A DNA stretch of 62,488 nucleotides, counting the filler, from Basidiobolus ranarum (lineage: Eukaryota), in assembly GCA_040143965.1 (NCBI GenBank). It is 9 parts of 9 records of this genome, joined end to end, with 100 filler letters (N's around TTAATTAATTAA, not from the genome) between each part and the next. Parts side by side here need not be neighbours in the genome. Positions count along the whole stretch, not along the records: positions 20,905 to 27,762 come from JASJQH010008103.1; 8 more parts are not named here. One strand, written 5' to 3'. Every line of letters starts with the position of its first letter. Within the stretch, counting starts at the first letter, position 1. Both the position numbers and the translations under genes were made by a program. The notes beneath the pieces were generated by a model, which searched no databases, was not told the DNA's origin, and worked only from the letters and a program-made list of their open reading frames with translations. Below are positions 25,910 to 27,340 of this stretch, in pieces.

Positions 25910-27340
25910 ATGGAACCACCTCTAAAGGTTATAGCAGTCAAAAGCTCAATCGCTGGTATTGAGTGGAAGCCACAATATGTTCCATAACTCATGTCACTTG
26001 TAGCAAACGTTCATACCTTTGTGTCACATACGTTTTCCTTTTTGAAGTACATCTTTACTTATGAACTGGAACATGACTCTACGTTTCTTTTGGAGGATTT
26101 CATTAATGTTGGCTTTTTTAAAGAAGTTTTTTTTGTCACTCCTCAATAACTACAAGCCAGACAAACAGAAAGCTTCGATAGAATCAAGAGCCTACAAAGA
26201 TCTAATACTCAAGTATCGGGATAAGTACTTTCAGTGCTGTTCTTACGAATCAGTCAACTTGTAGTATGCTCATCAGATAGCTTCTTATGAAGTGGCAAAA
26301 ACTGTTACTACTTATCTGACTGGGGTCAACCTTCAATTCAGAAACATAATGTTTCTTAACTTGCTCTTGAAGAAGAACAGGGAAAGCGAGAAAGAGATTA
26401 GGGCAGCCATAAAGACAGTAACAGAGCATATAAAGAAGGTCAAGCTTGCTATTTCGTCAAGGAATATTGAAGATATACCTAAAGAATTTCTCTCCTCAAA
26501 CGATTTGGATATGATCCATAGTCTTTTTGGCTCGTATTCGACAGATTATCAATTTGCAAAAGACTCAATCTATTACGACTGCAAAAGCAACCCTCTCAAG
26601 CATATAAAGGCGTACGCCAGACTGTCAAGCATGTGCAAATCTCTCCAAAACAAGCTATTCAACTGCTTTCTGTTAGGAAGGGGCTTTATACCATCCTACA
26701 TGACAATCGATACGTATATTTTGAATACTCAGATTTTAAAGAATTCTATCACCAGCCACTTGGACAAAGAAGCAGTATGGGGAACCGTTATTGACCTCAC
26801 ATCAAATGCAATGAAACCACAAGGAAAAAGCAAGTGAATGAAGTTTAGAGTTATGATGTACACAGATGGTGTAGGTGTGTTGGTGTTAAAGCAAAACCAC
26901 AAATACCATATAAATACTTGGTAACTGGTCGGTTGGAAATGAAAAGTATCGTGAGCCCAATAGAGGCGTCGGACTGAGAAAAATACTAGCCAAAGAAAGC
27001 TTCCAGCCATACCTCCTTGACGAGTTTGAAACTTCAAGTCTGTGCCCTACTTGCCAGAACGGTGAACTGGAAAAGTATAAAAAAGTCCAAAATCCTAGAC
27101 CATACAAAAGAGAAAAGTATCCTATTGTATATCGTCACGTCCTTTTAAGGTAAACGCTTTTTACAAGCAAGTAAATAAATTCCAAATTCCAACCTAATTT
27201 CTGCTCAGGTGCAAAAACCAACAGTGTTTAAAGGTCGTGACCAATACTACTGAGGCAACTACTGAAGTTTCTCACCATCGTCTTTGGAATCGTGACCTGA
27301 CTGTTACTTTAAACATATCCTTTTTAACTTGCGTAATATA
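25910..27340 (+). pseudogene. Fanzor1 (eukaryotic TnpB/OMEGA-type RuvC nuclease), degenerate and internally deleted
   Basis: MEPPLKVIAVKSSIAGIEWKP..HTFSFLKYIF..; SIYYDCKSNPLKH..FIPSYMTIDT; MYTDGVGV; ILGNWS..KYREP..GVGLRKIL..LLDEFETSSLCPTC (RuvC-II + Zn finger); intron; CKNQQC..RLWNRD (RuvC-III). Stops, frameshifts and loss of the RuvC-I region near 26900. Confidence 0.85.
27150..27208 (+). other. Spliceosomal intron within the Fanzor zinc finger
   Basis: GTAAAC..CCTAAT..CTCAG, 59 nt; removal joins HVLL-R-CKNQQC in frame. Confidence 0.8.

Follow-up and report, generated by a model that had tools for sequence, protein, structure and literature searches.

The stretch of DNA analysed here (the window; 62,488 nucleotides) comes from Basidiobolus ranarum (NCBI GenBank assembly GCA_040143965.1) and consists of nine small contigs of the draft assembly placed end to end, in descending length from 6874 to 6834 nt. 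The fourth piece (window positions 20905-27762, JASJQH010008103.1) carries the remains of a gene for Fanzor1, a RuvC nuclease guided by an omegaRNA. Judged from its sequence, this relic is very probably a decayed Fanzor1 of the Rhizopus arrhizus/delemar branch, which would have entered Basidiobolus by horizontal transposon transfer. As DNA reference we used the metagenome contig L001, a copy encoding the R. arrhizus protein P0002 at 99.6-100% identity; other relatives are numbered in the same manner, and PpFz1 and SpuFz1 are the Fanzor1 proteins of Parasitella parasitica and Spizellomyces punctatus. The relic, a fragment of a transposon with terminal inverted repeats (TIRs), shows the following features:

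25876..27334, plus strand: Fanzor1 pseudogene, internal fragment of a TIR transposon (homology to L001 2186-3250 and 3801-4229)
25910..25912, plus strand: ancestral ATG start (MEPPLK..., as in P0011, P0016 and P0017; tblastn of P0011 and P0017 from residue 1, family alignment)
25985..25987, plus strand: first in-frame stop, TAA (translation, family comparison)
26113..26133, plus strand: +1-nt frameshift in a T-run, where translation leaves the frame of 25910 and enters that of 26133 (tblastn frame switch; indel after 26126)
26262..26264, plus strand: second in-frame stop, TAG, where relatives have K (alignment)
26346..26388, plus strand: two in-frame deletions in comparison with L001, one of 6 nt and one of 39 nt, with the family segment ERIKALKSEMKK... 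gone (alignment)
26835..26837, plus strand: third in-frame stop, TGA (translation, alignment)
26896..26912, plus strand: junction of an internal deletion of ~0.53-0.55 kb, with change of frame (equivalent to L001 3251-3800 and P0002 residues 230-407)
26911..26913, plus strand: fourth in-frame stop, TAA, at the L of ILILGNWS in relatives (alignment)
26914..27149, plus strand: retained RuvC-II/TNB part with GNWS, LLDEF (Glu), TSS and CPTC (residue alignment with PpFz1 and SpuFz1)
27150..27208, plus strand: 59-nt GT..AG intron, positioned as in the spliced Rhizopus P0002 and L001 (P0002 alignments break here in both)
27209..27334, plus strand: second zinc-ribbon pair CKNQQC and RuvC-III RLWNRD, up to the end of homology at 27334 (alignment to L001)

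The coding blocks of the relic are spread over three reading frames, and all the peptides quoted in an initial annotation of this DNA, made from the sequence alone, were found in place and far beyond chance (see the E values below). The first frame, starting at 25910, contains SIAGIEWKPQYVP and HTFSFLKYIF, its read-through beginning with MEPPLKVIAVKSSIAGIEWKPQYVP and then running into a stop. SIYYDCK and FIPSYMTIDT belong to an open reading frame (ORF) of 190 amino acids (aa) at 26265-26834, which ends at the stop 26835-26837, while TDGVGV and then LKQNH follow at 26838-26900, the peptide after the stop being MKFRVMMYTDGVGVLVLKQNH. Farther downstream, ILGNWS..REPNRGVGLRK..LLDEFETSSLCPTC...RHVLLR occupies 26914-27149, and CKNQQC..RLWNRD is encoded in the downstream exon (27209-27338).

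In a search that took only proteins of 334-2000 aa sharing words with the query, the 190-aa ORF matched 33 proteins (best E 4e-83, 71% identity), whose named sources are all Mucorales: R. arrhizus, R. delemar, R. microsporus, Gilbertella, Thamnidium and Pilaira. Many of these family proteins (337-713 aa) look like fragments themselves. Against the PDB, the same ORF matched PpFz1 (E 9.9e-31, residues 627-830 of the fusion) and SpuFz1 (E 7e-4), and a C-terminal piece of 79 aa matched the same two proteins (PpFz1 E 1.7e-22, residues 1129-1206; SpuFz1 E 1.3e-6). The full-length relative P0015 aligns with PpFz1 at E 9.5e-158, and a profile built from 14 relatives retrieved only the two Fanzor1 sequences at E<=1. 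The alternative outcome, in which the reconstructed protein finds no Fanzor match or its two ends belong to unrelated families, was looked for and did not occur: N- and C-terminal blocks hit PpFz1 and SpuFz1 in collinear order, as the initial annotation had supposed, and these alignments show homology to Fanzor1 as parts of what would be one protein. By this comparison the relic is to be regarded as a descendant of Fanzor1, not as a functional member. Pfam is of little help in this family; six pieces of the relic gave only sub-threshold chance matches (e.g. DUF7198 at 0.057) and no PF07282, and among six relatives Cas12f1-like_TNB (PF07282) appeared weakly, below threshold, in three. A precomputed label, PF26935.1, is attached to 32 of the 33 protein matches.

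The relic aligns to L001 over window positions 25876-26897 and 26913-27334 (blastn: 80.3% over 1058 nt and 79.1% over 435 nt). Its lesions amount to four in-frame stops, three frame breaks (the last of them a 7-nt deletion near 27305-27313), the internal deletion, the in-frame deletions and a 3' truncation. The sudden passage from KQNH to ILGNWS had been read as loss of the RuvC-I Asp region, and this is indeed a true deletion, as relatives hold 155-178 residues between LKQNH and ILGNWS. The missing stretch includes the conserved block GKCVLIDPGRRDL (CVLIDPGRRD, with the RuvC-I Asp), which aligns with CVLMDPGRRDL of PpFz1; IDPGRRD is the best-conserved part of the lost segment, with D, R and D invariant and P present in at least 90% of 14 relatives.

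Downstream of the deletion much of the catalytic core can still be recognised. The zinc finger and the RuvC-III Asp are both present, as initially described: the C4 zinc ribbon is kept as CPTC in exon 1 and CKNQQC in exon 2, and RLWNRD at 27279-27296, identical to the family RLWNRD, preserves the RuvC-III RD motif. The position of the RuvC-II Glu has to be corrected, however. It had been assigned to the Glu of the 'EP' motif, but LLDEFETSS (27018-27044) aligns with LIDEFRTSS of PpFz1 and LLDEYKTSS of SpuFz1. The catalytic Glu was placed on a loop just before the TNB domain (Xu et al. 2024, PMC11423790), and G500 and E536 were described as conserved in Fanzor1 (Bao and Jurka 2013, PMC3627910), a G-to-E spacing of 36 residues which recurs in SpuFz1. 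Because of this pre-TNB position and this spacing, the catalytic residue is most likely the Glu of LLDEF and not that of 'EP', both of which the relic keeps. Without the RuvC-I Asp, and with four stops and three frame breaks, the copy should be nuclease-dead, as had been proposed. The reference copy is not flawless either: L001 is frameshifted near its N-terminus (2187-2441, +1 nt in an A/T run, elsewhere than the shift in the relic), and the NCBI protein P0002 therefore begins at an internal Met.

In order to place the relic among its relatives, a maximum likelihood tree of 35 rows was calculated from the relic read through (with X at the breaks), the 33 matches of the protein search and L002, a distant locus, as outgroup. 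The initial annotation had named a tree against Mucorales Fanzor1 as the way to judge horizontal transfer, and the outcome was positive. The relic lies inside a Rhizopus clade of 13 rows (support 100/99), its companions being one row of unassigned origin and 11 from R. arrhizus/delemar; three R. microsporus rows form the sister group (97/94). Further out follow one single row, next a clade of one R. delemar and five Gilbertella rows, and after it another single row, whereas Thamnidium and Pilaira form a separate clade; most rows of the tree follow genus. At the amino acid level the relic is 68-76% identical to the R. arrhizus/delemar copies, and is thus closer to them than are the copies of R. 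microsporus (54-55%) and Gilbertella (48-50%). An approximately unbiased (AU) test on 22 rows rejected a topology uniting the 20 named Mucorales rows with the relic outside (delta lnL 37.3, p=0.001); of the 13 rows dropped for this test, four are of unassigned origin and nine were omitted for run time, some of them short or long-branched. A scan of metagenomes gave five loci, only one of which (L001) is close, L002-L005 being 22-41% identical. When viral contigs were scanned with the family profile, 54 pattern matches were obtained, with no relative among them that would point to a virus as vector.

The DNA comparison with L001 adds a measure of age. Ungapped identity is 1200/1434 nucleotides (83.7%), distributed as 87.5% at codon position 1, 87.6% at position 2 and 76.6% at position 3, with 38/46 (83%) in the intron and 25/33 in the 5' untranslated region (UTR). 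Positions 1 and 2 are better kept than position 3, which shows that purifying selection governed part of the divergence, be it on the Rhizopus side, on the Basidiobolus side prior to inactivation, or on both. Later neutral decay would fit the long terminal branch of the relic (0.27, against a median of 0.066). Divergence at third positions is ~0.23 uncorrected, so silent sites are far from saturated.

These values bear directly on the question of vertical inheritance, according to which an ancient Fanzor1 of a zygomycete ancestor would have been kept in Basidiobolus and would resemble Rhizopus by chance or through slow evolution. Fanzor1 is indeed widespread in early-diverging fungi (Bao and Jurka 2013, Table 1, PMC3627910), and unannotated Basidiobolus copies could have escaped the search of 334-2000-aa proteins. 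But the relic is nested within the genus Rhizopus, nearer to R. arrhizus/delemar than the copies of R. microsporus or Gilbertella are, the AU test rejects a position outside the Mucorales (p=0.001), and identities of 83% in the intron and 77% at unsaturated third positions contrast with the host's own proteins: the copper ATPase (Cu-ATPase) encoded on piece six of the window, whose ORF is 100% identical to an NCBI B. ranarum protein, shares only ~48-50% protein identity with its Mucorales homologues. As vertical descent cannot give a nested position and unsaturated silent sites next to host proteins of 48-50% identity, we consider this explanation barely credible. A transfer from Mucorales to Basidiobolus, on the other hand, would be the parsimonious direction, because the family is broad in Mucorales and the relic sits inside it.

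One may also ask whether the relic is still in use, be it as a truncated REC/WED-domain protein made from the 190-aa ORF or as a regulatory RNA. The longest ORF (26265-26834) is intact and spans the REC/WED region, and the higher identity at codon positions 1 and 2 than at 3 shows that at least one of the two lineages was formerly under purifying selection. Yet the 190-aa frame is bounded by in-frame stops within what was formerly continuous coding sequence, its first in-frame Met is an internal one, stops, frame breaks and in-frame deletions are distributed over the whole length of the relic, and its terminal branch is long, all of which makes domestication very improbable. In the reading as a decayed transferred copy, the relic most likely has no function now, neither as nuclease nor as source of a guide RNA nor as a mobile unit: with its 3' end gone it should give no family guide RNA, and without TIRs it should not be mobilised.

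How much of the element is missing can be seen from L001. Homology begins 34 nt 5' of the ATG (25876) and ends at 27334 (L001 4229); past this point the ORF of L001 continues for 43 codons, followed by 219 nt of 3' sequence, so that the relic has lost the final ~43 codons as well as its 3' UTR and the terminal repeats on both sides. The missing ORF tail was sought elsewhere in the window and was not found (best tblastn E 0.22). L001 carries TIRs of 135 nt, 89% complementary, at 1721-1855 and 4446-4580, and the Fanzor gene therefore sits inside a TIR element of 2.86 kb. Around the relic no TIR was detected, as alignments of its flanks to the L001 ends scored 61 and 40 (shuffles: means 47 and 45, maximum 72), nor does any convincing inverted repeat bracket it (best inverted pair 20 nt at 80%). 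A second trace of the family is present at the very left end of the same contig:

20906..21094, plus strand: right-end fragment (3' UTR and TIR) of a second element of the Fanzor1 family (blastn; terminus ...TTTTAGATTAAAACACTG, then TA)

Positions 20921-21094 match the right end of L001 (4382-4404 and 4430-4580) and, inverted, its left TIR (1721-1855), at E ~6e-18. When the three ends are aligned, their terminal ~24 nt (...TCATTTTAGATTAAAACACTRTA) prove near-identical and no similarity extends past this point, which gives the terminus of the element family as ...TTTTAGATTAAAACACTRTA. Since the fragment precedes the relic and shares its orientation, it is another insertion, and its body would be found in unassembled DNA left of 20906; the contig break inside a family TIR end at this position hints at further copies in the genome. 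The earlier statement that no TIR is visible on the contig thus holds for the flanks of the relic, but not for the contig as a whole. At the family level, the residence of Fanzor1 in a eukaryotic transposon is borne out by the L001 TIRs together with this TIR end. A transposase was found neither on L001 nor in the window.

The element ends read TA|TAGTG...CACTA|TA in L001 and ...CACTG|TA in the window. They are compatible with a TA target-site duplication (TSD) of Tc1/mariner type, a reading that draws on one complete element (L001) and one end (window), but TA could also belong to the TIR. An element of MuDR type with a 9-bp duplication was also considered and is unsupported, as the 9-nt flanks of L001 (a single element), AGTGGATAA and GAATATACA, do not match each other. 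At 21088-21099 the junction of TIR end and flank forms a perfect 12-nt palindrome, CACTGTACAGTG (CACTG, TA, CAGTG), which may be due to chance or may be a trace of the target site; no TIR similarity extends beyond it. On L001, outside the TIRs and upstream of the Fanzor element, positions 1-906 (plus strand) hold an ORF with a weak match to phage integrases/tyrosine recombinases (E 6e-4), followed at 908-1234 by inverted repeats of 33 and 43 nt, one pair being 100% complementary; recombinase-like ORF and repeats may represent a Crypton- or DIRS-like element.

The omegaRNA scaffold of the Fanzor1 family presumably lies at the right end of the element, as we assume by analogy with TnpB and other Fanzors. 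It had been suggested that the omegaRNA was probably lost here because the next gene is only about 110 bp away. The presumed site is indeed absent, but the cause is the truncation at 27334, which removed the 3' end and the right TIR; what had been taken for a neighbouring gene (27449-27814, minus strand) is an ORF without any family match, extending into the contig spacer. When the family's right ends (L001; window 20995-21094) were folded, they showed no structure beyond that of shuffled sequences (z 0.08 and 1.03). In the 428 nt that separate the relic from the contig end, a 15-nt palindrome, GGTGGGAATCCCACC, occurs at 27483-27497. As a stem of 7 bp it was considered for the omegaRNA and dropped, because homology ends before it and L001 has no equivalent.

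The genomic surroundings of the relic have to be judged within the limits of its own contig, as the contigs in the window are joined by spacers of the form N44-TTAATTAATTAA-N44, across which any neighbourhood is artificial:

6875-6974, 13841-13940, 20805-20904, 27763-27862, 34718-34817, 41668-41767, 48616-48715 and 55555-55654: spacers between contigs
24721..25623, minus strand: fragment of a tRNA-dihydrouridine synthase (Dus) gene, a host gene beside the relic and outside the element, without Pfam Dus positions 1-134

An exon of a major facilitator superfamily (MFS) gene on the same contig (21231-21758) matches a B. ranarum protein at 100% identity and two proteins of B. meristosporus at 82% and 80%. 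The Dus fragment is interrupted by an in-frame TAG at 25456-25458 (GLADWE*IKRVRK), and its last 208 residues carry a B. ranarum protein annotation (P0159, 208 aa). The closest named relatives, with 44-52% identity, belong to Entomophthora, Piptocephalis, chytrids, Mortierellaceae and Dimargaris; of the 150 matches listed, ten were identified by source, with no Mucorales among them. Because the MFS and Dus neighbours are of host type, the contig is to be assigned, on the evidence of these genes, to Basidiobolus (Basidiobolomycota) and not to Mucorales (Mucoromycota). By its sequence the Dus gene next to the relic is likewise broken and would be the Dus paralogue beside which the element inserted; a single deletion that removed the left end of the element together with the 5' half of Dus is plausible. 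The annotation of this region should be read with caution, as it lists a protein for the truncated Dus fragment, and ORFs crossing the spacers are not genes.

Given such an assembly, an artefact has to be weighed, in which short reads of a Mucorales contaminant would have been assembled into a chimeric contig linking its Fanzor DNA with that of Basidiobolus. Fragmentation of the assembly is indeed strong, with contigs of ~6.85 kb, and the right flank of the relic is unanchored, the contig ending 428 nt further on. However, two separate fragments of the Fanzor1 family are found on this one contig, the TIR end (20906-21094) 134 nt from the MFS gene (100% B. ranarum, 82% B. meristosporus) and the relic ~250 nt from the Dus fragment of non-Mucorales type, so that contamination would presuppose two chimeric joins within a single contig. 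The relic is moreover heavily decayed and just 84% identical to the nearest Rhizopus-type DNA, and for this reason is not a known Rhizopus sequence, while GC and tetranucleotide make-up are as in the other contigs. We therefore regard a chimeric contig as improbable.

The course of events most in keeping with these observations would start from a non-autonomous DNA transposon with long TIRs, carrying a Fanzor1 omegaRNA-guided RuvC nuclease and belonging to an element family at home in Mucorales. A copy of the R. arrhizus/delemar branch would have passed by horizontal transposon transfer into the Basidiobolus lineage, in another fungal phylum, inserted beside a dihydrouridine-synthase paralogue and then decayed. 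Several points weigh against this interpretation. The junctions between host and element are known from the assembled contig alone, host-type genes anchor the relic on its left side only, and on its right the contig ends after 428 nt (27335-27762) without any match. The group in the AU test was set after the tree was seen, with 13 rows dropped, and as four family rows are of unassigned origin, the nearest donor lineage may not be Rhizopus itself. The protein search, limited to 334-2000 aa, would miss shorter or unannotated Basidiobolus copies. Base composition (GC 0.35-0.41 and tetranucleotide r 0.87-0.97 across the nine pieces), in which the contig of the relic is not distinct from the other eight, fits integration yet is uninformative.

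A further step would be that B. ranarum harbours a Rhizopus-derived Fanzor1 family acquired by transfer across phyla, with intact mobile copies still residing in unassembled repeats, which we regard as conceivable but rather unlikely. If true, it would be a natural case of an RNA-guided nuclease and its transposon spreading between distantly related opportunistic fungi, and Rhizopus and Basidiobolus have soil, dung and gut habitats in common.

Elsewhere in the window, the contigs at 27863-34717 and 55655-62488 have the lowest GC (0.35 and 0.36) and a tetranucleotide correlation of 0.97 with each other, as compared to 0.87-0.92 for all other pairs, and a weak match to a copia-type gag occurs at 27814-28218 (E 6e-4; contig 27863-34717). 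Both contigs may contain a common retrotransposon family.

Among known systems, the Fanzor1 of Parasitella parasitica is the best characterised, with structure (PDB 9cf0-9cf3), target-adjacent motif (TAM) and omegaRNA published (Xu et al. 2024, Cell, PMC11423790). Protein family and domain order are common to PpFz1 and the relic, as are GNWS, LLDEF-TSS, the zinc ribbon (CPxC...C..C) and WNRD. PpFz1 is active as an omegaRNA-guided nuclease, with an omegaRNA of 75 nt, whose guide starts from nucleotide 50, a 5'-ATN TAM and an FRI insertion of ~100 aa in RuvC (Xu et al. 2024, PMC11423790), whereas the relic is without the RuvC-I Asp, the lid/insertion region, the 3' end and the omegaRNA site; an insertion of ~100 aa as in PpFz1 is absent in 14/14 aligned relatives of the relic. 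SpuFz1 of the chytrid Spizellomyces punctatus (PDB 8gkh) resembles the relic in the RuvC-II/TNB block (E 1.3e-6) and in the REC/WED part (E 7e-4), but is much more distant, intact and active. With bacterial TnpB (IS200/IS605, IS607), Fanzor has in common the motif logic D...E...[TS][TS]-C4 zinc ribbon...RD (Bao and Jurka 2013, PMC3627910; Yoon et al. 2023). Our family profile retrieved no TnpB structure from the PDB at E<=1, and the link of the relic to TnpB is thus one drawn from the literature.

The nearest relatives are the R. arrhizus/delemar Fanzor1 copies (P0002; L001), which have their intron at the same position and, in L001, a TIR terminal sequence matching the fragment at 20906-21094. 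They differ from the relic in belonging to a host of another phylum and in possessing TIRs and the 0.53-0.55 kb of coding sequence that the relic has lost. Fanzor1 was described from Rhizopus oryzae (four families), Mucor and Phycomyces (Bao and Jurka 2013, PMC3627910), and the R. arrhizus/delemar copies are probably among these ROr families, though ROr-4 was described as MuDR-like with 9-bp TSDs (Bao and Jurka 2013, PMC3627910) and the 9-nt flanks of L001 are mismatched. The initial annotation considered the family perhaps uncharacterised, which holds only in part: in the light of these descriptions the relic is a degenerate descendant of a known Mucorales Fanzor1 group, of which PpFz1 is characterised (Bao and Jurka 2013; Xu et al. 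2024). As to the host, no link between Basidiobolus and Fanzor was found in a full-text search of the literature, and the passages retrieved on horizontal transfer of Fanzor in fungi do not describe a Rhizopus-Basidiobolus pair. Transfer of Fanzor from prokaryotes or viruses to eukaryotes has been discussed (Yoon et al. 2023), and a role of Fz1 in transposon-mediated gene transfer among Mucorales and a mycoparasite was put forward as speculation (Xu et al. 2024, PMC11423790). As a gene, the relic is an ordinary dead copy and offers neither a new mechanism nor an editing tool. Its value is an evolutionary one, that of a well-supported candidate for transfer of a Fanzor1 transposon from the Rhizopus lineage (Mucoromycota) to Basidiobolus (Basidiobolomycota), and a copy that crossed phyla in this way would supply the gene-transfer idea of Xu et al. 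with a concrete case.

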